DNA of 46,944 bases from Alphaproteobacteria bacterium UBA3637 (GCA_002373615.1 DFKU01000040.1:1-46944); one strand, 5' to 3'. Counted from the first letter of the stretch, positions 23,546 through 46,944 are shown. Made by a program: numbers and translations. The notes: generated by a model from the letters alone, not told the origin.

Positions 23546-23719
23546 GCCCGAGAGGGTGGGGTGTGATAGCCTCTCTCAATACGTCCAGCAGGACGAAGAT
23601 CTTCAATCGGTAAAGTCCGGTTGGATGGCCGCTAAATAAGGGACTTTGTCTTGAATAGGTGGCACTATTTATTGAGTAGTTATCACCTCCAACCACTTTT
23701 TGGGTGGTTTAATTTTTTT
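23546..23719 (+). promoter_or_regulatory. structured 5' leader RNA (type A1) with terminator/antiterminator, upstream of a small lipoprotein gene
   Basis: Promoter is TTGCTT at 23511-16, 17-nt spacer, TAAAAT at 23534-39. A helix pairs AAAGUCC (23612-18) with GGACUUU (23641-47). GGUUGGA(U)GG at 23619-28 is complementary to CCUCCAACC at 23686-94. That segment overlaps the terminator stem AACCAC/GUGGUU, which is followed by a U-run at 23710-19. A near-identical copy lies at 44200-44376 on the minus strand. Confidence 0.6.
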
Positions 23720-23730
23720 CAAGGAGTATA

Positions 23731-23916
23731 ATGATGAAAAAACTATTTTTAATTTTAATCGCGTTTGCTTTGACGGGGTGCACCTATGCGGGGCCCTTTG
23801 TGACACATATATCACAAAATAAAGATGGGAGCTTAACTGTGGAAAAATGTATGGTGGAACACAATGCTTTTTCTGGGGCCATCGCCACCACAAATTGCAC
23901 CCAATCTAAAGTATAA
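23731..23916 (+). CDS. small lipoprotein (61 aa), paralog of 44004-44189
   Basis: Lipobox LTGC. The mature part begins CTYAGPFVTHISQNKDGSLTVEKCMVEHN...TTNCT, with 3 conserved Cys. It has an AAGGAG RBS. Confidence 0.75.
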   Translation: MMKKLFLILIAFALTGCTYAGPFVTHISQNKDGSLTVEKCMVEHNAFSGAIATTNCTQSKV

Positions 23917-23981
23917 TTTCTTTTTAAATCCCCTCCCCCCATTTAAACAGCATAGGCTTAATAAAAAATGAAAGGAAAAAA

Positions 23982-24482
23982 ATGAAAAAATTATTATTGC
24001 TTTCTTGTTGTTTATTGGGGGCGTGTGCGACAACCCCTGATAGGATTGAAACCCCGATTTATAAGACTGTGGGGGATAAAGATCAAATTGGGACAGTTAC
24101 CTTTTATGACACCGCTCAAGGCTTAAAAGGCGTTGTAAATTTATCTGAATTGCCCGTTGGGGAACATGGATTTCATATTCATGCGATTCCCGATTGCGGT
24201 TCTTTGGATGGAGAGCCTGCCATGAAAGCGGGGGCTCATTATGATCCAGCTCAGACCGGAAAACACTTGGGGCCCGATGGGGATGGACACAAGGGTGACC
24301 TGCCCCGTTTAATGACGGATGATGAAGGGCATGTCAGGACTGCCTTTTATGCGCCACATCTCACTTTACAGGAAATTAAAGGGCGTTCTGTTGTCATTCA
24401 TGAATTTGGGGATAATTATGCGGATACACCCCGTCCACAAGGCGGTGGCGGTAAACGCATTGCCTGTGGGGTAATAAAATAA
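23982..24482 (+). CDS. sodC: Cu/Zn superoxide dismutase, lipoprotein form
   Basis: Lipobox LLGAC, plus GFHIH, HKGDLP and GGGGKRIACGVI. Confidence 0.93.
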   Translation: MKKLLLLSCCLLGACATTPDRIETPIYKTVGDKDQIGTVTFYDTAQGLKGVVNLSELPVGEHGFHIHAIPDCGSLDGEPAMKAGAHYDPAQTGKHLGPDGDGHKGDLPRLMTDDEGHVRTAFYAPHLTLQEIKGRSVVIHEFGDNYADTPRPQGGGGKRIACGVIK

Positions 24483-24528: not shown

Positions 24529-24567
24529 CACTTACAATTTCAAAAAGAATCTGAGTATAATGAGGGC

Positions 24568-24645
24568 GTCTGCCTGAATAGGTAAGACTATCTACTTTCT
24601 ATATAGTTATGAACATCCACTCACTGAAACAGTGAGTCTTTGTTT
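24568..24645 (+). promoter_or_regulatory. truncated copy of the leader RNA family (3' half only) upstream of pilin-like paralog 2
   Basis: Promoter is TTACAA at 24532-37, 18-nt spacer, TATAAT at 24556-61. UGAAUAGGUAAGACUAU and CAUCC, then the hairpin CUCACUG-aaa-CAGUGAG (24620-36) and UCUUUGUUU, match the 3' part of the A/B leaders. No upstream partner for CAUCC is present. Confidence 0.45.
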
Positions 24646-24667
24646 AACTTTAAAAAGGAGATAAAAA

Positions 24668-25036
24668 ATGGACATGAAAAATAGAAAAATAAATTGTCAT
24701 TGCGAGCCCATCAGGGTGTGGCAATCTCACGAGATTGCTTCACATACGTTCGCAATGACGGGTGAGTGTGGGCGTTCTAGCCCCACCTGTCATCCTTGGA
24801 CGAGCGTCAGCGAGATCCGAGGATCCACTGGACGTGGCCTTAACGTACCTCGTTGTGCACAATACGCACAATCCGGGCGCAGTATGGTGGAAATGCTGGG
24901 CGTCCTGGCGGTGATGGGCGTCCTCAGTGTTGCGGGCATCACGGGCTATAATTCCGCTATGAATAAGCATCGCGCCAACGAGCTCTTAAACGAGGCCTCC
25001 AAACGCGCCGCACCTGTCGCCATGCATTTGATGTAG
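24668..25036 (+). CDS. type IV pilin-like protein, paralog 2 (short; possibly truncated or pseudogenised)
   Basis: A 70-aa leader ends in SG, followed by RSMVEMLGVLAVMGVLSVAGITGYNSAMNKHRANE... The ORF stops only about 52 aa after the putative cleavage site. The leader contains two palindromic elements in frame. Confidence 0.5.
   Translation: MDMKNRKINCHCEPIRVWQSHEIASHTFAMTGECGRSSPTCHPWTSVSEIRGSTGRGLNVPRCAQYAQSGRSMVEMLGVLAVMGVLSVAGITGYNSAMNKHRANELLNEASKRAAPVAMHLM
24696..24759. repeat. palindromic element family 1, copy 2
   Basis: GTCATTGCGAGCCC...GGCAATCTC-AC-GAGATTGC...TTCGCAATGAC, translated as CHCEPIRVWQSHEIASHTFAMT. Confidence 0.7.
24788..24842. repeat. palindromic element family 2, partial copy
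   Basis: TGTCATCCTTGG...GCGTCAGC..GA.CCGAGGATCCA matches the left part of 230-322. Confidence 0.55.
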
Positions 25037-27762: not shown

Positions 27763-27913
27763 GCATTTTGATTTTGGTCAAAATGTCGGGTCTGAAAAAT
27801 CCGTACAATCTATCCGTCCAGAATCGGGCGGATGACCGCCCAATAAATTGAATAAGTGGTACTATGATTGTATAGTTTTTCAGCATCCGTCCACTAAAGC
27901 AGTGGATTTTTTT
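27763..27913 (+). ncRNA. orphan copy (type B1) of the structured leader RNA family; no downstream plus-strand gene
   Basis: Promoter is TTGACA at 27728-33, 17-nt spacer, TACCAT at 27751-56. Helices are GAAAAA/UUUUUC (27794-99 with 27876-81), UACAAUC/GAUUGUA (27804-10 with 27866-72), and the hairpin GGGCGG-AUGA-CCGCCC (27826-41). GGCGGAUG (27827-34) is complementary to CAUCCGUC (27884-91), which overlaps the terminator UCCAC-uaaagca-GUGGA plus U7 (27890-913). Confidence 0.6.
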
Positions 27914-27997
27914 AATGGCACATATGGGCGGTGCTGGCTGAATAAATTGAATAGGTCAGAGGTTTTTAATAGGACTAATACATTGAACGCCGCCCGC

Positions 27998-28222
27998 CTA
28001 ATTCACTTCTTTAAAATCCACATCAATCACATCATGGGCGTGAATCGGGTGATGACGCGTACGGTGTTTGCGAACGCGCGTTCTTATGTGGCCTTTCAGG
28101 CGTCTTAGTGCCCCCAATAAAACAGCGATAATTAAAATTGGAATGGCCACATACCATAGCGTCAAAAACATGAACATCAAAAATAAAGCCGATAAAATGA
28201 TGGAAAAAAGCTGGTAAATCAT
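27998..28222 (-). CDS. small membrane protein (hypothetical)
   Basis: 74 aa with two hydrophobic helices and a basic/His-rich tail. Its start overlaps the mutS stop by 4 nt, which suggests translational coupling. Confidence 0.55.
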
Positions 28223-36740: not shown

Positions 36741-36779
36741 TTCTTGTTTTTTATAAAAATTTTATTTACAATGTTTTTG

Positions 36780-37045
36780 AATTTGGGGAAACCTGAATTC
36801 TGAGTGCCTGAAAAGGTGCAAGAGAGTTGTCGCAGACTCAATGTCACGGGTGAGTGACACCTGCCCCAAAAGGTGCGTGTGTTTTAAATAATCCTTTGGA
36901 TTTGCTCACCTATTTTTTCCCGACATGGTCGGGGGCCTTTGGTGCATGTTCAGGGGGAAACCCTAAAGACCATTGGAATCATTGTGACATTTGATTGCGA
37001 ACTCTCCGGCCACCTGAAATTCAGGTGGTGTTTAAACAATAAAAA
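36780..37045 (+). promoter_or_regulatory. long 5' leader of pilin-like paralog 3 (composite; contains repeat remnants and a terminal hairpin)
   Basis: Promoter is TTGTTT at 36744-49, 17-nt spacer, TACAAT at 36767-72. ACCUGAAUU (36791-99) is perfectly complementary to AAUUCAGGU (37018-26), which is the 3' half of the hairpin CCACCUGA-aau-UCAGGUGG (37010-28). There is an internal hairpin CCCGAC-aug-GUCGGG (36919-33). The motif CAAAAGGUGC occurs twice. Confidence 0.4.
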
Positions 37046-37059
37046 ATTGGAGTAATAAA

Positions 37060-37836
37060 ATGAAAAGAAATAATTTAAAACAAAATGTCATTCTGAGTGA
37101 AACGAAGAATCTGATGAGATCCTTCACATTCGTTCAGGATGACAGAGAATCTGGTCGGTCGATGGTGGAAATGTTGGGAGTGTTAGCAGTGATGGGCGTC
37201 TTGAGTGTCGCGGGCATTGCCGGTTATAATACAGCGATGAATCAACACCGTGCCAATGAAGCCGTTAACTCTGCGATGCGGGCGGCGGTTATGTTATCTG
37301 CGCAACGCCTCGCCAATCCATCCGCCACTTTAAGTGCCAACGGTTTAGACAGTGCCATTACTGTTGGTAATGACACGGATAAACTGGTTTTGACTTTAAG
37401 CAATGTGGATGAAAAAGTCCGTTCCAGAATTGAGGCCATGGGACTTAAAAACGCCACGATCAGCTCTGATGGAAATGGTGCTTTAACTTTTACCTTTAAC
37501 AACGATTTATCCGAAAGAAACAGTGCGGGCGGAAATGAGCAACAAGAGCCCGAGCCCGTTGCTGACCCGTGTGCAGGATTTACTGCGACGATTTGCACAA
37601 CAGCTTGCACAAATAATAATGGAAAAGCTATTTATACCTATGAAAAGAAGGGGACAGCTTGTGGTATAGACGGAGGTAGAGCTTGTGATGGAAATGGAAT
37701 TTGCAATCGATGCCCTGATGACACATATGCAGCTTTATCATCGTATGGTAATGGTGATGAGAGTAATGTACCTGGCTGTAACTGTTCTGGATCAATGGGA
37801 TGGAACTCACAGCTTGAAAGATGTGAAAAAAAATAA
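37060..37836 (+). CDS. type IV pilin-like protein, paralog 3, with Cys-rich C-terminal module
   Basis: A 32-aa leader ends in ESG, followed by RSMVEMLGVLAVMGVLSVAGIAGYNTAMNQHRANE. Next come a small beta-rich region, an acidic/Pro linker (QQEPEPVADP), and a C-terminal module with 12 Cys. Confidence 0.65.
   Translation: MKRNNLKQNVILSETKNLMRSFTFVQDDRESGRSMVEMLGVLAVMGVLSVAGIAGYNTAMNQHRANEAVNSAMRAAVMLSAQRLANPSATLSANGLDSAITVGNDTDKLVLTLSNVDEKVRSRIEAMGLKNATISSDGNGALTFTFNNDLSERNSAGGNEQQEPEPVADPCAGFTATICTTACTNNNGKAIYTYEKKGTACGIDGGRACDGNGICNRCPDDTYAALSSYGNGDESNVPGCNCSGSMGWNSQLERCEKK
37086..37144. repeat. palindromic element family 3 (TGTCATTCTGAG...CAGGATGACA)
   Basis: Inverted termini with an inner stem GAAGAATCTG/..; translated in frame as VILSETKNLMRSFTFVQDD within the leader peptide. 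Confidence 0.65.
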
Positions 37837-39568: not shown

Positions 39569-40175
39569 ATTTCACCCCCGATATTTTTAAGATAACCCCT
39601 TCTGAATATTCATTTGGAAATTCTTCAATTTGTGCGTCAAATTGGCAATTTTTTATTTCCTCTTTATACCCTTTTCCTTTTGGTAAAATCCAAATTGTTT
39701 CACGTGAAACAATTTTTCGACACAATATAAGTATTTGATTTAATTCAGAAAATGCACGACAAGTTAAAACATCACTTTTTAAATTTTCTATCTTTTCTAC
39801 CCGTTCGGATAGGATATTTAAATTGAGTCCTAATTGCCTATTTACCTCTTTCAAAAAGATAGCTTTTTTATTATCGCTTTCAATTAAAGTAATTGTTAAA
39901 GGAAAATTGGCAACTTTATTTAAAATTCCCAAAATAATTCCAGGAAATCCGCCGCCGCTCCCCACATCCGTTAAAGTTTTACTTGAATCAGGAATATATT
40001 TCCAAAGTTGAGCAGAATCCAAAACATGTCTTTTTTGAAGATCAGGGATAGTATTTTTTGAAATTAAATTTACATGTTTTTGCCATTCAAGCAAAACTTT
40101 GATATATTTTTCAATATCTTGTTGTGATTCCTTTAAAACTTTTTCAAATTGTTTCACGTGAAACATTCCCCTCAT
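39561..40175 (-). CDS. rsmG: 16S rRNA (guanine527-N7)-methyltransferase
   Basis: GSGGGFPG SAM-binding motif and the conserved rsmG-parA-parB order. Confidence 0.92.
   Translation of the reverse strand: MRGMFHVKQFEKVLKESQQDIEKYIKVLLEWQKHVNLISKNTIPDLQKRHVLDSAQLWKYIPDSSKTLTDVGSGGGFPGIILGILNKVANFPLTITLIESDNKKAIFLKEVNRQLGLNLNILSERVEKIENLKSDVLTCRAFSELNQILILCRKIVSRETIWILPKGKGYKEEIKNCQFDAQIEEFPNEYSEGVILKISGVKYE
39696..39711. promoter_or_regulatory. parS: parS site 1 (TGTTTCACGTGAAACA)
   Basis: Exact match to the canonical 16-bp parS palindrome. It lies inside the rsmG 3' region and is read as VSRET. Confidence 0.9.
40150..40165. promoter_or_regulatory. parS: parS site 2
   Basis: Exact TGTTTCACGTGAAACA at the rsmG 5' end, read as MFHVK. 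Confidence 0.9.
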
Positions 40176-40229: not shown

Positions 40230-40634
40230 TTAAAAATAAAATTTTACAGTATTTTTTGAACAATTACTTTTTTCTATATTTTTTGCACCAGCAAAATGAT
40301 TATCAAAACTATTACAGAGTTTTTCTTCTACCCGATTTAAAGTGATAGAAAATCCCCCATTTGATTCAGATTTAGCCGAAGCAGGATACCCAGCAATAGA
40401 AAATGTTTCACGTGAAACATTTTGAGGATTTGACAACATAAGTGTTTGAATTTCAATATTTTTTATTTGTAATTCTTGAGCAATTTTATTCTTTTTTAAT
40501 TGAAAATTAGCTGTATTATATCCTTTGACAGATTGAGCAGTCATCATTCCGTCCACAGCCATACTTCCCATTAGGTCAATCATTTGCGCTGAAGTAGAAA
40601 GTGATGTACCCAGTATTAGTAAAAATAAAATCAT
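40230..40634 (-). CDS. hypothetical secreted protein
   Basis: The start at 40634 overlaps the dnaQ stop (ATGA). It has a signal-like N terminus, MILFLLILGTSLSTSAQ. It contains parS site 3. Confidence 0.55.
   Translation of the reverse strand: MILFLLILGTSLSTSAQMIDLMGSMAVDGMMTAQSVKGYNTANFQLKKNKIAQELQIKNIEIQTLMLSNPQNVSRETFSIAGYPASAKSESNGGFSITLNRVEEKLCNSFDNHFAGAKNIEKSNCSKNTVKFYF
40404..40419. promoter_or_regulatory. parS: parS site 3
   Basis: Exact 16-mer within a 22-bp perfect palindrome, AAATGTTTCACGTGAAACATTT. Confidence 0.9.
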
Positions 40635-41317
40635 ATCTCCCCCCATATTGGATTTTTAATTTTTGATAAAAATTCTGTGTGGGCAGATTCTTCCGTTGGA
40701 TCTAAATTCCACTCACGTACAGGAAATGTTTCACGTGAAACATTTTTTAAATTATGACTAACTGTTTGATTTTGTTGTTTTTTTTGAGTGGAAGAAAAAT
40801 TTAATTCCCGATTTGTAATCAATTCCAGATACACGTCAGCCAATAATTCTGAGTCCAACAAAGCCCCATGGACCGTCCGGCGCGAAGCATCCACTTTATA
40901 GCGCTTGCATAATTCATCCAAGTTCACTCTTGCCCCTGGAAATTTTTTCCGCGCAATTAATAATGTATCAATGACAGGATTTGGTAATTCTGCTTTTCCA
41001 CAGGCCTTTAATTCGTAATTCAAAAAATTCATATCAAAGGCGGCATTATGGATCACAAGCGGCGTATTTTCGCCAACGAAGGCCAAAAAATCATCTGCAA
41101 TTTCTTCAAATAATGGCTTGTCAGACAAAAATTCTTCCGTCAAACCGTGCACAGCTACAACTTCCTGGCTGATAGCGCGCATTGGATTAATGTATTGATG
41201 ATACGTCTTTCCGGTCGGTAAGTGGTTTTCCAATTCCACACACCCAATTTCAACAATCTTATCCCCCTTTTCGGGATTCAGTCCTGTTGTTTCTGTATCC
41301 AAAACGATTTCACGCAT
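40631..41317 (-). CDS. dnaQ: DNA polymerase III epsilon subunit (3'-5' proofreading exonuclease)
   Basis: Exo I DTETTGL, Exo II HNAAFD, Exo III HGALLDSELLADVY. Confidence 0.93.
   Translation of the reverse strand: MREIVLDTETTGLNPEKGDKIVEIGCVELENHLPTGKTYHQYINPMRAISQEVVAVHGLTEEFLSDKPLFEEIADDFLAFVGENTPLVIHNAAFDMNFLNYELKACGKAELPNPVIDTLLIARKKFPGARVNLDELCKRYKVDASRRTVHGALLDSELLADVYLELITNRELNFSSTQKKQQNQTVSHNLKNVSRETFPVREWNLDPTEESAHTEFLSKIKNPIWGEI
40727..40742. promoter_or_regulatory. parS: parS site 4
   Basis: Exact 16-mer within the same 22-bp palindrome, in the dnaQ C-terminal tail (NVSRETF). Confidence 0.9.
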
Positions 41318-41407: not shown

Positions 41408-41591
41408 GAATCAAGCAGGTGCTTGGTTCGGCTGGGCGTAAGACCCCTGCAAAGTTGCTGATAAAGCGTAAAAACTGCCTTTTAGTTCAAAGGACTGGAA
41501 GGCAGGTAATAAAGGGCCTTTCAGGGCTTTTAATAACTGCGCATAACTTTGTAATGTCTTAACTTCCAGTCGCTGATAGCGACTTTTTTTA
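41408..41591 (+). promoter_or_regulatory. structured 5' leader RNA (type D) with terminator/antiterminator, upstream of pilin-like paralog 4
   Basis: Candidate promoter is TTGCGC at 41373-78, 17-nt spacer, TAGTGT at 41396-401. GACUGGAAG (41493-501) is perfectly complementary to CUUCCAGUC (41563-71). That segment overlaps the terminator AGUCGC-ugaua-GCGACU plus U7 (41568-91). The core GGACUGGAAGGcagGUAAUAAAGGG parallels the leaders at 377-580 and 23546-23719. Confidence 0.55.
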
Positions 41592-41615: not shown

Positions 41616-42212
41616 ATGAGTAAAAGTCAAAAGAAGAACGAACAAGGACGGTCCATGGTGGAAATGCTGGGGGTTTTAGCGGTGATCGGTGTCTTGAGTG
41701 TCGCAGGCATTGCAGGGTATAATACAGCCATGCGGTCACACAAAGCCAATGAAGTTTTGAATGCAGCCAGTATGTTTTATGTGCTAGCAAAAGCCCAAAA
41801 TCAGGGGAATGGTCCAAGTGGTAATATAAACTATGCTGATGTGGGTGGTACAAATCCATCAGGGGCAACCCTCACCTACACAGACAATGCTTTCACCATC
41901 ACTTTCACGGATACGGATGATTGCACCATGGCCGCGAATAAGTTGGGTGACAAGGCAACTACTGATTGTACCAATAAAAAATTAACCGTTAACTTCGGGG
42001 AAACAACAACATCCCAAACACCAGAAGAACCTCAGGAAGATTTAACAATTGTAGACATGCAAGACGGAAATTGTCCTTCTGGATATAAACCTACAGGGAT
42101 AGATGATAAGTGTGCTAAATCATTAACAGATGCAGCAAAGCTATGTTCAAGCGGATGCGCGCAAGATACACCACTAGAATATGCTTGCGTTGATTCCAGT
42201 TATTGTCTATGA
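41616..42212 (+). CDS. type IV pilin-like protein, paralog 4 (archetype with short leader), with Cys-rich C-terminal module
   Basis: MSKSQKKNEQG/RSMVEMLGVLAVIGVLSVAGIAGYNTAM. This is a short basic leader ending in Gly, with Glu at +5 and a roughly 20-aa hydrophobic helix. It continues with a small beta region, an acidic/Pro linker (TPEEPQED), and a C-terminal module with 6 Cys. It has an AAAGGA RBS. Confidence 0.7.
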   Translation: MSKSQKKNEQGRSMVEMLGVLAVIGVLSVAGIAGYNTAMRSHKANEVLNAASMFYVLAKAQNQGNGPSGNINYADVGGTNPSGATLTYTDNAFTITFTDTDDCTMAANKLGDKATTDCTNKKLTVNFGETTTSQTPEEPQEDLTIVDMQDGNCPSGYKPTGIDDKCAKSLTDAAKLCSSGCAQDTPLEYACVDSSYCL

Positions 42213-44014: not shown

Positions 44015-44189
44015 TATCGGTTGTGCAATTTTTGGTAGAAACTGTACCCAAAATATTATGCTCCATCATACACTTTTCAACCTTTAAGTCCCCTGATTTT
44101 GTACGCGAAATATTGGTGACATAAGGCCCGGCATAGGTGCACCCTGTCAAAACAAACACGATAAAAATTAAAAATAGTTTTTTCATCAT
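44004..44189 (-). CDS. small lipoprotein (61 aa), paralog of 23731-23916
   Basis: I moved the start to the ATG at 44189 (MMKKLFLIFIVFVLTGC, AAGGAG RBS). The mature part is CTYAGPYVTNISRTKSGDLKVEKCMMEHN...TKNCT. Its 3' end overlaps the mutL stop region by 11 nt in a convergent arrangement. Confidence 0.75.
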   Translation of the reverse strand: MMKKLFLIFIVFVLTGCTYAGPYVTNISRTKSGDLKVEKCMMEHNILGTVSTKNCTTDIIG

Positions 44190-44199
44190 TATACTCCTT

Positions 44200-44376
44200 A
44201 AATAAAATTTAAACCACCCCAAAAGTGGTTGGAGATAGGAAACTACTCAATAAATAGTGCCACCTATTCAAGACAAAGCCCCTTATTTAGCGGCCATCCA
44301 ACCGGACTTTACCGATTGAAGATCTTCGTCCTGCTGGACGTATTGAGAGAGGCTATGATACCCCACCCTTCCGGGC
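44200..44376 (-). promoter_or_regulatory. structured 5' leader RNA (type A2), near-identical copy of 23546-23719
   Basis: Minus-strand promoter is TTGCAA (44406-11), 17-nt spacer, TAGAAT (44383-88). The reverse complement aligns almost base for base with A1. The GGGACUUU to GGGGCUUU change keeps pairing as a G-U wobble. The terminator is CCAACCAC-uuuu-GGGGUGGUU. Confidence 0.6.
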
Positions 44377-44419
44377 AAGGCTATTCTAACACAAACAAAT
44401 ATAATTTGCAAGACAATAA

Positions 44420-46575: not shown

Positions 46576-46668
46576 GGTTGTCTTTTTGTTATTTTTTTAT
46601 CAGCGCTTTTTTATAAAAGTGTAAGTATTTTGTTTGACATTTAAAATAATTTTGATTATTCTGAAGTG

Positions 46669-46820
46669 GCACTTGGCAAGGGCCAATGTGCCGGATTTGA
46701 AAAGTCCGTATAGTGTTGTCCGTCCTGTATTGGATGGATGACCGTCCAATATAATGAATAAACGGTACTGTCACTATACAGCTTTTCAACATCCGTCCAC
46801 TTTTAAAAGTGGAATTTTTT
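46669..46820 (+). promoter_or_regulatory. structured 5' leader RNA (type B2) with terminator/antiterminator, upstream of pilin-like paralog 5
   Basis: Promoter is TTGACA at 46634-39, 17-nt spacer, TATTCT at 46657-62. Helices are GAAAAG/CUUUUC (46699-704 with 46782-87), GUAUAGUG/CACUAUAC (46708-15 with 46772-79), and the hairpin UUGGAUGG-AUGA-CCGUCCAA (46730-49). GGAUGGAUG (46732-40) is complementary to CAUCCGUCC (46790-98), which overlaps the terminator UCCAC-uuuuaaaa-GUGGA plus a U-run (46796-820). Confidence 0.6.
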
Positions 46821-46848
46821 GTTGTCAATTAAAATGAAAGGATGAACA

Positions 46849-46944
46849 ATGGACAAATTATTAAAAAAAGAAAAGAATTTAAATTCGATTTGTCATTCTT
46901 GCGTAAGCGAGAATCCGGCAGGAAATAAGGTCCTACATACCGCT
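46849..46944 (+). CDS. type IV pilin-like protein, paralog 5 (5' end only; runs off the window)
   Basis: The sequence from the ATG at 46849 (AAAGGA RBS) is MDKLLKKEKNLNSICHSCVSENPAGNKVLHTA. By hand alignment, 87 of 96 nt are identical to the reverse complement of 269-364 (paralog 1). Membership in the pilin-like family is inferred from that homology only. Confidence 0.45.
   Translation, partial: MDKLLKKEKNLNSICHSCVSENPAGNKVLHTA
46891..46944. repeat. palindromic element family 2, copy cut by the window end
   Basis: TGTCATTCTTGCGTAAGCGAGAATCCGGCAGGAAATAAGG... matches the reverse complement of 230-322. Confidence 0.6.

Follow-up and report, generated by a model that had tools for sequence, protein, structure and literature searches.

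T-box leaders have an antiterminator that is less stable than the competing fold and needs a trans partner, and many copies per genome precede genes of one functional class. In the pyr operon, PyrR stabilises the anti-antiterminator and thereby brings about termination, the antiterminator being the default. The adenine ON riboswitch pbuE (ydhL) has an antiterminating fold that is much less stable than its terminating one, so that the decision is a kinetic one, taken during transcription. RAT sites (BglG/SacY) are local imperfect hairpins of ~30 nt and ANTAR sites are two tandem small hairpins with hexaloops; both overlap a terminator. As regards pilin genes, the class II c-di-GMP riboswitch Cdi-2-4 of Clostridioides difficile is an ON switch that allows read-through into the type IV pilin gene pilA1 (PMC6200980).

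The leader described here occupies positions 41408–41591(+) of the window, i.e. the whole 46,944-nt stretch of DNA analysed, which comes from the origin-proximal chromosome of an uncultured, low-GC (~41%) alphaproteobacterium and carries gidB–parA–parB, the dcw cluster, mutS, mutL and dnaQ. Like the T-boxes of Firmicutes, it is a long structured leader with mutually exclusive antiterminator and terminator helices at its end, but it is found in Alphaproteobacteria, before surface-protein genes and not aminoacyl-tRNA synthetase genes, and it combines an upstream decoy strand with a 20-bp enclosing helix, that is, double anti-antiterminators; it does not match the T-box model even at E values up to 10, and the specifier loop and the T-box sequence are absent. 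With the trp, his and leu attenuators it shares four segments, the 1:2, 2:3 and 3:4 pairings and a segment 1 that resembles segment 3, whereas it lacks a conserved leader ORF and has an extra long-range helix (P1), an extra hairpin (P2) and a conserved arm (Px–P4). The three tiers of the pyr leader (anti-antiterminator, antiterminator and terminator) are present too, but the default is the terminating fold, by ~13 kcal/mol, and no PyrR-type binding-loop sequence is apparent by eye. As in pbuE/ydhL, stability strongly favours the terminator fold over the antiterminating one; however, the pbuE aptamer is made first and its competitor later, while the competitors in the present leader (the 5' strand of P1 and a strand called seg1) come first. 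The anatomy of RAT and ANTAR sites is not met by this long-range helix enclosing ~70 nt with two internal arms, although this is a comparison of anatomy made without a dedicated model. Finally, the leader resembles Cdi-2-4 in that it is a 5' leader before a pilin-like gene and one of a multi-copy regulon of surface functions, but architecture and phylum differ, and neither the c-di-GMP-I nor the c-di-GMP-II model gave a sequence or structure match in the leaders.

More generally, searching the window against Rfam 15 at gathering threshold returned tRNA-Asp as the only match and none at a leader, and lax searches (E up to 5–10) of the window and of three single leaders returned nothing consistent at the leaders. 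We found no description of the element in literature searches. We class the leader as a new family of terminator/antiterminator leader switch, either orphan riboswitch-like or a protein-dependent attenuator, with a double anti-antiterminator and a trigger that remains unidentified. Note that the 3' half of one leader from another genome (L009 3852–3936) matched sRNA-Xcc1 with 24 bits (gathering threshold 53; E = 0.03 in a 221-nt search); this match, absent from the other leaders, is probably driven by the terminator.

The focal leader, which precedes pilin-like paralog 4, opens with a 5'-terminal hairpin, P0 (41408–41429), present in the minimum free energy (MFE) fold; the 35 leaders for which upstream sequence is available all have an equivalent hairpin 1–4 nt 5' of P1. 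The following elements can be assigned to two alternative folds. The 5' strand of the long helix P1 (41434–41455), defined by the alignment to the fold-A model R2 and by pair counts, forms in the alternative fold a small hairpin, Pα (UGGG..CCUG). Hairpin P2 (41457–41467) is common to both folds (96.9% paired in the fold-A alignment, with 6/6 pairs varying on both sides). Next come seg1 (41475–41488), an anti-antiterminator strand that mimics a downstream strand, seg3, and that was assigned from the MFE fold, the fold-A helices and a table of the four segments, and the G-rich seg2 (GACUGGAAG, 41493–41501), whose partner is either seg1, giving helix P3, or seg3, giving the antiterminator. The Px–P4 arm (41502–41540) contains a conserved A-rich internal loop with AAUAAR on its 5' side and AAUA on its 3' side. 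It is followed by the 3' strand of P1 (41542–41567), which in the alternative fold becomes hairpin P5 plus a linker, J (P1b, one of the two parts of P1, is 98% paired and P5 100% paired). The last strand, seg3 (CUUCCAGUC, 41563–41571), is shared three ways: its 5' part pairs in P1, the whole of it with seg2 and its 3' part in the stem of the intrinsic terminator (stem-loop 41568–41584 and then a T run, ending at 41591), which is supported by a terminator scan and by helix covariation. All of these features are on the plus strand, as is the controlled gene (41616–42212), which starts 26 nt past the leader and encodes a prepilin-like protein with the N-terminus G/RSMVEMLGVLAVIGVLS.

Prepilin-type N-termini in the window have this same G/RSMVEMLGVLAVIGVLS form, and the genes that encode them are scattered among housekeeping genes; matches of the window proteins to prepilin models or pilin structures are sub-threshold only. 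Several of these genes contain translated insertions of palindromic repeats between the start codon and G/RSMVEML, in the window at 1–364(−), 24668–24900(+) and 37060–37150(+) and elsewhere in loci L008, L010, L011, L024, L044 and L137, with peptides such as VILSE..RMT, CHSCVSEN, CHCE..AMT and HPERSEGSG. Such insertions may be tolerated because they are located in the part that prepilin peptidase would remove. A different and longer leader (36775–37050(+)) precedes the pilin-like gene at 37060. It is strongly structured (z = −5.1), ends in a GC-rich hairpin whose U tract is poor, and was detected neither by R2 nor by R1, a covariance model of the leader 3' half; it may represent a second leader family.

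Five other intact leaders are present in the window. The leader of pilin-like paralog 1 (378–580(−), gene start at 364; 74.5 bits with R1 and 24.9 bits with R2) has seg2 at 477–485, seg3 at 407–415 and its terminator at 391–407, and is preceded by a promoter-like site at 615–587(−), TTGACA-17-TATGAT. A 61-aa lipoprotein gene, of which the window has two copies, starts at 23731, is followed by sodC and has a leader at 23546–23718(+) with seg2 at 23619–23627 and seg3 at 23686–23694, and the leader of a lipoprotein paralog (gene start at 44189) spans 44202–44380(−), with seg2 at 44295–44303 and seg3 at 44227–44235. Two leaders are of a short type (B-type), without P2 and P4: one, at 46664–46822(+), precedes a pilin-like gene starting at 46850 (seg2 46732–46740, seg3 46790–46798) and the other, at 27786–27915(+), is an orphan without a downstream gene on the same strand (seg2 27826–27834, seg3 27884–27892). 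The orphan, which has its own promoter-like site, is followed in tandem by a partial second copy (27926–28012(+), 27.5 bits with R1) that retains only seg2, Px and seg3, without seg1, P1 or terminator, and whose MFE structure is the antiterminator-type fold; read-through across 27786–28012(+) would run antisense to a 74-aa ORF and to mutS. Last, a truncated and degenerate copy at 24547–24645(+) (16.6 bits with R1, 18.6 bits with R2), which retains its terminator (24619–24637) but lacks the 5' half and has only a degenerate seg2, lies before a decayed pilin-like ORF at 24668–25036. The region 24547–25036(+), with its 122-aa, mostly repeat-derived pilin-like ORF and early stop, is probably a decaying gene copy. 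Promoter-like sites are found immediately 5' of four window leaders. Start codons in the window lie 12–26 nt past the terminator, and this tight spacing implies that the genes depend on read-through.

Two further features of the window deserve mention. Four copies of the palindrome TGTTTCACGTGAAACA (39687–39715, 40141–40169, 40395–40423 and 40718–40746), which is parS-like judging by the consensus, lie within or beside gidB, parA, parB and dnaQ, suggesting that the window is near the replication origin. In addition, tRNA-Asp has a second copy of its 3' end and terminator 175 bp away (627–672 and 802–847(−)), the two copies being 85% identical; a duplicated tRNA 3' end is the type of scar left by integration at a tRNA gene.

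The original prediction for this locus held that leaders of different pilin-like and lipoprotein genes carry, at the same architectural position, an antiterminator helix whose sequence differs and whose complementarity is preserved. The strand pairs it relied on are all present: GACTGGAAG (41493–41501) with CTTCCAGTC (41563–41571) in the focal leader, GGTTGGAAG (485–477(−)) with CTTCCAACC (415–407(−)) in the leader of paralog 1, GGTTGGATG (23619–23627) with CCTCCAACC (23686–23694), including one U–C mismatch, in the lipoprotein leader, the pair at 44303–44295 and 44235–44227(−) in the leader of its paralog, and, in the B-type leaders, GGGCGGATG (27826–27834) and GGATGGATG (46732–46740), each with CATCCGTCC (27884–27892 and 46790–46798, respectively). 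The 3' strand does overlap the 5' half of the terminator, with 3–4 nt in common in every one of the six intact leaders; a scan for a hairpin plus T run found the terminator in 5/6 of them, and the sixth, 391–407(−), has A7 and then T6. The conserved A-rich segment noticed after the 5' strand is also real: its consensus is AAUAAR, and a second segment, AAUA, faces it in the same arm. AAUAAR was also considered as the −10 box of a promoter, and rejected, there being no consistent fit to the positions of TATAAT.

Selection on seg2:seg3 complementarity, which had been inferred from the window alone, is borne out by compensatory changes in 36 leaders (the six intact ones of the window and 30 others) from many genomes. 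In A4, a structure-blind alignment of these leaders made with MAFFT only, the seg2:seg3 helix is a perfect 9-bp helix without bulge and is 97.5% paired; pairs 2, 3, 4 and 8 vary on both sides and show as many as six pair types. When the adjoining Px helix is included, the paired fraction in A4 is 95%, as against 75% in shuffles (0/500 reach the observed value), and sliding the partner by 1–3 columns lowers this figure to 31–49%. RNAalifold picks the seg2:seg3 helix for its consensus unprompted. The terminator helix, 92% paired on A4 and 92–99% paired across alignments, with covariation, has three columns (88–90) in common with seg2:seg3. Since terminator and antiterminator use the same columns, these columns covary with two partners, which is what an antiterminator/terminator pair predicts and what supports the antiterminator reading. 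The constraint bears on the sense RNA and not on the DNA, as indicated by the excess of G–U over A–C pairs (149:33 and 63:7) and by the low scores of the reverse-strand model (~25 bits versus ~80 bits for the sense strand). The locus has the two parts of an attenuator: an intrinsic terminator between promoter and start codon, and an alternative helix that shares terminator nucleotides and is kept by compensatory change. What the original prediction missed is the remainder of the switch, namely the anti-antiterminator seg1, the long P1 helix and the conservation of a whole second fold; moreover, the antiterminator, whose pairing it had right, is ~13 kcal/mol less stable than the terminating fold and cannot form unaided at equilibrium. 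Resemblances to ops/RfaH and CsrA sites were discarded, the similarity of GGCGGAUG being confined to one subgroup and its positions covarying with seg3.

The terminating fold, or fold A, consists of P0, P1 (P1a and P1b), P2, P3 (seg1:seg2), the Px–P4 arm and the terminator, and it is the MFE structure of every leader (36/36); no MFE structure contains the antiterminator. P1, of ~20 bp, pairs the 5' region with the region just 5' of seg3, its outermost pairs using the CWUCC of seg3; P3 is formed by seg2 and seg1, the wobble-rich mimic of seg3 lying upstream. Because plain MAFFT misaligns the 5' half of the leader, fold A was tested with R2, which was seeded from five near-identical sequences, and with alignment-free comparisons of duplex energies between strands of the same leader and of different leaders. 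R2 retrieves 36/36 leaders at full length, with boundaries equal to those set manually. In the resulting alignment, 94.5% of the cells of 49 pairs are paired (33–48% in slid controls) and 45/49 pairs vary on both sides, compared to 33.9 ± 2.0 in shuffles; P1b has four to five pair types per pair. The energies agree in being lower for own than for cross-leader partners: −22.8 versus −11.5 kcal/mol for P1, where the own partner is the best one in 31/36 leaders, −15.1 versus −9.3 kcal/mol for seg2:seg3 and −11.2 versus −8.2 kcal/mol for P3. The four segments co-vary across the family, as exemplified by seg1 CAUUCGUCC, seg2 GGGCGGAUG, seg3 CAUCCGCCC and terminator 3' strand GUGGG in one leader and by CUUUCAGUC, GACUGGAAG, CUUCCAGUC and GCGAC in another. 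Note that the fold-A alignment (A8) and the fold-B alignment (A6) were fitted to their own models, so that their pairing percentages are inflated; the A4 results on antiterminator, Px and terminator are unaffected.

The read-through fold, or fold B, is made of seg2:seg3 and three small hairpins, and its four tested helices are 95–100% paired (seg2:seg3 98%, Px 96%, P4 95% and P5 100%). Of its 22 pairs, 16 vary on both sides, including 6/6 in Px and 3/4 in P5 (CYAU...AURG), and 0/500 shuffles match either the pairing percentage or the covariation score. At the 5' end, Pα is present in every leader (36/36), with 4 bp or more in 33/36 as against 27% of shuffles, in variants as diverse as GGG..CCC, AGAGG..CCUCU, UGGA..UCCA and CGGAU..GUCCG. 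The loop of Pα is the 5' strand of P1a and the loop of P5 is the 3' strand of P1b; P1 therefore competes with Pα and P5 for the same nucleotides. The visibility of covariation for both states is the most distinctive feature of the element. Among unpaired nucleotides, strong conservation is restricted to AAUAAR and AAUA, located opposite each other between Px and P4 (and within a single hairpin loop in the short B-type leaders); a few junction bases are conserved as well. The AAUAAR/AAUA pair looks like a recognition site, yet it is present in both folds.

As closest relatives we find MAGs that bear the label Alphaproteobacteria and originate from goat, sheep, roe deer, rabbit and human gut. 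Searches with nhmmer using the window leaders found relatives directly 5' of prepilin-like genes in other genomes, with cross-matches between leader types. R1, run on the window with filters off, detected six strong and two degenerate copies and nothing else convincing. Among 165 loci fetched from species-representative genomes and metagenomes it picked up another 30, which belong to MAGs of gut and rumen Alphaproteobacteria; the metagenome scan contributed only eight new leaders. JAZRVC01 carries eight copies or more within ~40 kb of fetched loci, and SIG60 carries one. Altogether, 33/36 strong copies are in sense orientation directly 5' of a prepilin-like or small lipoprotein gene, and the remaining three comprise two before a truncated or frame-shifted gene and the orphan; the gene starts 3–45 nt past the leader in all intact cases but one. 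The leader marks a subset of the prepilin-like family, as 27 of the 157 genes with a prepilin motif in the fetched loci carry it, about one in six. The small lipoprotein family is limited to 13 clusters in a collection of 5.8 billion proteins. In the window, a lipoprotein gene with this leader is followed by that of a Cu/Zn superoxide dismutase (23731–24482(+)), and in another genome (L003 3001–6180) leader and lipoprotein gene are followed by genes for VWA, TPR and BatD-domain proteins. The gene set (secreted or surface prepilin-like proteins, lipoprotein plus periplasmic Cu/Zn SOD, lipoprotein plus VWA/TPR/BatD) points weakly to a signal related to the envelope or the host.

Comparison of the leaders, together with the folding calculations, shows that both folds are conserved by compensatory change and are mutually exclusive, fold A being the predicted default at equilibrium and length by length. 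In computed structures, forcing seg2:seg3 costs 13.6 ± 4.6 kcal/mol in the full leader (36 leaders) and 13.0 ± 3.9 kcal/mol in a transcript cut right after seg3, and in 35/36 leaders P1b belongs to the MFE structure from the moment its 3' strand has been transcribed. This cost, the early appearance of P1b and the absence of the antiterminator from any MFE structure together indicate that termination is the default. Of the two helices open to seg2, each considered in isolation, the one with seg3 is stronger than the one with seg1 (−15.1 versus −11.2 kcal/mol) because G–C pairs replace G–U pairs; it is P1 that tips the balance. We consider it likely that the element acts in cis, as a transcription-attenuation leader of ~170 nt with two states, a stop and a go fold, a reading for which there are no data on transcript ends or read-through. 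The leader would run from the 5' hairpin, right after the promoter, to the intrinsic terminator, 12–37 nt ahead of the start codon. In the stop state, P1 would capture the CWUCC of seg3 while seg1 keeps seg2 in P3, leaving the rest of seg3 to the terminator. In the go state, the P1 strands would fold back into Pα and P5, and seg2 would exchange seg1 for the whole of seg3, so that the terminator is blocked and RNA polymerase enters the prepilin-like or lipoprotein gene. The decision is inferred to depend on which comes first, the zipping of P1 with capture of the start of seg3 or the invasion of P3 by seg3. Read-through is inferred to require a trans factor, RNA-binding protein or small ligand, that would either block the P1 5' strand and seg1 or stabilise the three-way junction of seg2:seg3 with the AAUAAR/AAUA loop; the surface or secreted protein family would then stay off until the signal arrives. 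Several points speak against this two-state reading: no experimental data on transcript ends or read-through support it, no trans factor or ligand has been identified, the conserved unpaired AAUAAR/AAUA sits in an arm of both folds without obvious discrimination between them, a gap of 13 kcal/mol is large for a small ligand, save under kinetic control, and the leader at 27786–27915 controls no gene.

Two refinements of the two-state leader differ in the nature of the trigger. It is possible, if unproven by any ligand-binding data, that the element is an ON riboswitch for a metabolite or second messenger, with the three-way junction of seg2:seg3, Px–P4 (including its AAUAAR/AAUA loop) and P5 as aptamer: ligand bound during transcription would trap the three-way junction and prevent termination. 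The leader does have a conserved structured domain, with covariation in fold B, and conserved unpaired nucleotides (AAUAAR/AAUA and a few junction bases only), concentrated in one internal loop, and it occurs in many copies per genome before surface-protein genes, as c-di-GMP riboswitches do, with one tandem arrangement; the pilA1 riboswitch of C. difficile is a precedent for an ON switch before a pilin gene (PMC6200980). However, no known riboswitch model matches, the junction strands show no sequence conservation, the conserved loop belongs to both folds, and RNA polymerase makes the competitors (P1 5' strand and seg1) ahead of the putative aptamer, with fold A favoured by ~13 kcal/mol at every length tested. 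No ligand candidate emerged, and the folding energies say no more than that the go state depends on outside help. Such help could equally come from an RNA-binding protein, an idea that we regard as just as tentative in the absence of any identified protein: by binding to the 5' domain (P0/Pα plus the next single strand, or seg1) or to the A-rich loop, the protein would block P1 and P3 and let seg2:seg3 form. An antiterminator that cannot form unaided fits this idea and has parallels in T-box, PyrR, BglG and ANTAR-type systems; as seg2:seg3 beats seg1:seg2 alone, removal of P1 would tip the balance, P0 and Pα are kept in every member despite variable sequence, and the two AAUA-containing strands, facing each other, form a near-symmetric site. 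Yet no gene for a candidate protein is linked to the leaders, which lie dispersed between housekeeping genes, we saw no conserved sequence motif in the 5' domain, and the anatomy is unlike that of RAT, ANTAR, PyrR and TRAP sites. Between a small ligand under kinetic control and an RNA-binding protein no choice is possible, neither being better than a tentative proposal. A specific factor might even be dispensable if polymerase speed, NTP level or pausing set read-through, by way of the race between P1 zippering and formation of Pα and P5. We find such a factor-independent kinetic attenuator improbable: the decision does seem to hinge on P1 nucleating before seg3 emerges, and the competing Pα and P5 are conserved, but the 5' strand of P1b is free, P1b is favoured once it can form, and the conserved A-rich loop would be left without a role.

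Other explanations were also weighed. The arrangement of 1:2, 2:3 and 3:4 hairpins is that of a classical attenuator, in which a ribosome stalled on seg1 would free seg2 for seg3 in the manner of trp, his or leu; nevertheless, 9/36 leaders have no ATG ORF of at least eight codons over the 5' half, the ORFs that exist differ in position, frame and peptide and almost always lack a Shine-Dalgarno sequence, 1-nt indels occur between seg2 and AAUAAR and in P1b (where they are compensated on the opposite strand), and the 5' half evolves by paired compensatory changes. A leader peptide as trigger is therefore very unlikely, with hardly any chance of being right. One frame, ending at the UAA after seg2 (GWMAAK-stop, GRMTAQ-stop), was followed up and given up, being broken by 1-nt indels and by AAG in place of AUG; no ORF is common to the leaders. 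Even less credible is that the complementarity is a by-product of a palindromic mobile repeat (REP- or MITE-like) or of a DNA-level hairpin; the mobile repeat is what the original prediction had named as the finding that would weaken it. It is true that the genome carries short palindromic repeats, even inside pilin-like genes, and that reverse-strand models match at the leaders, from internal symmetry. But covariance-model scans of the 47-kb window with filters off match leader sites only, strong matches are all sense and 5' of genes, reverse matches reach 25 bits against ~80 bits, G–U pairs far outnumber A–C pairs, and the copies differ by compensatory substitutions where a recent repeat would have left near-identical ones. 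A further view would make the terminated RNA of ~170 nt the product, a family of sRNAs possibly acting in trans on sister leaders via seg2 and seg3, with read-through secondary. Fold A is indeed very stable and compact, with a 5' hairpin and a terminator, the copy at 27786–27915 has no downstream gene, and seg2/seg3 variants (..AACC, ..AGUC, ..GYCC) recur within and between genomes. We doubt this reading about as strongly as the factor-independent one: 33/36 copies lie directly before a prepilin-like or lipoprotein gene and two more before a truncated or frame-shifted one, the spacing is tight and leaves no room for a separate promoter, and a stand-alone sRNA would not need the conserved seg2:seg3 pairing.

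The two-state leader, if confirmed, would be of unusual design, with two pre-formed anti-antiterminators and both functional states visible by covariation; compensatory evolution that supports each of a pair of mutually exclusive folds is shown by few RNA families. That it is a new class of riboswitch or factor-dependent switch sensing an unknown signal (a second messenger, an envelope cue or a host cue) is no more than a tentative suggestion; it would add an orphan riboswitch-like class to a phylum where transcription-terminating riboswitches are uncommon. The leader offers a clean, testable model of a bistable attenuator and a handle on how a very large, uncharacterised prepilin-like family is regulated in gut and rumen Alphaproteobacteria, of which there are no cultured representatives. 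If the model is true, prepilin-like proteins and periplasmic defence genes (lipoprotein–sodC, lipoprotein–bat) of gut Alphaproteobacteria would be activated in one step, and the ligand or protein partner, if found, would reveal the signal by which these gut commensals deploy their surface repertoire.
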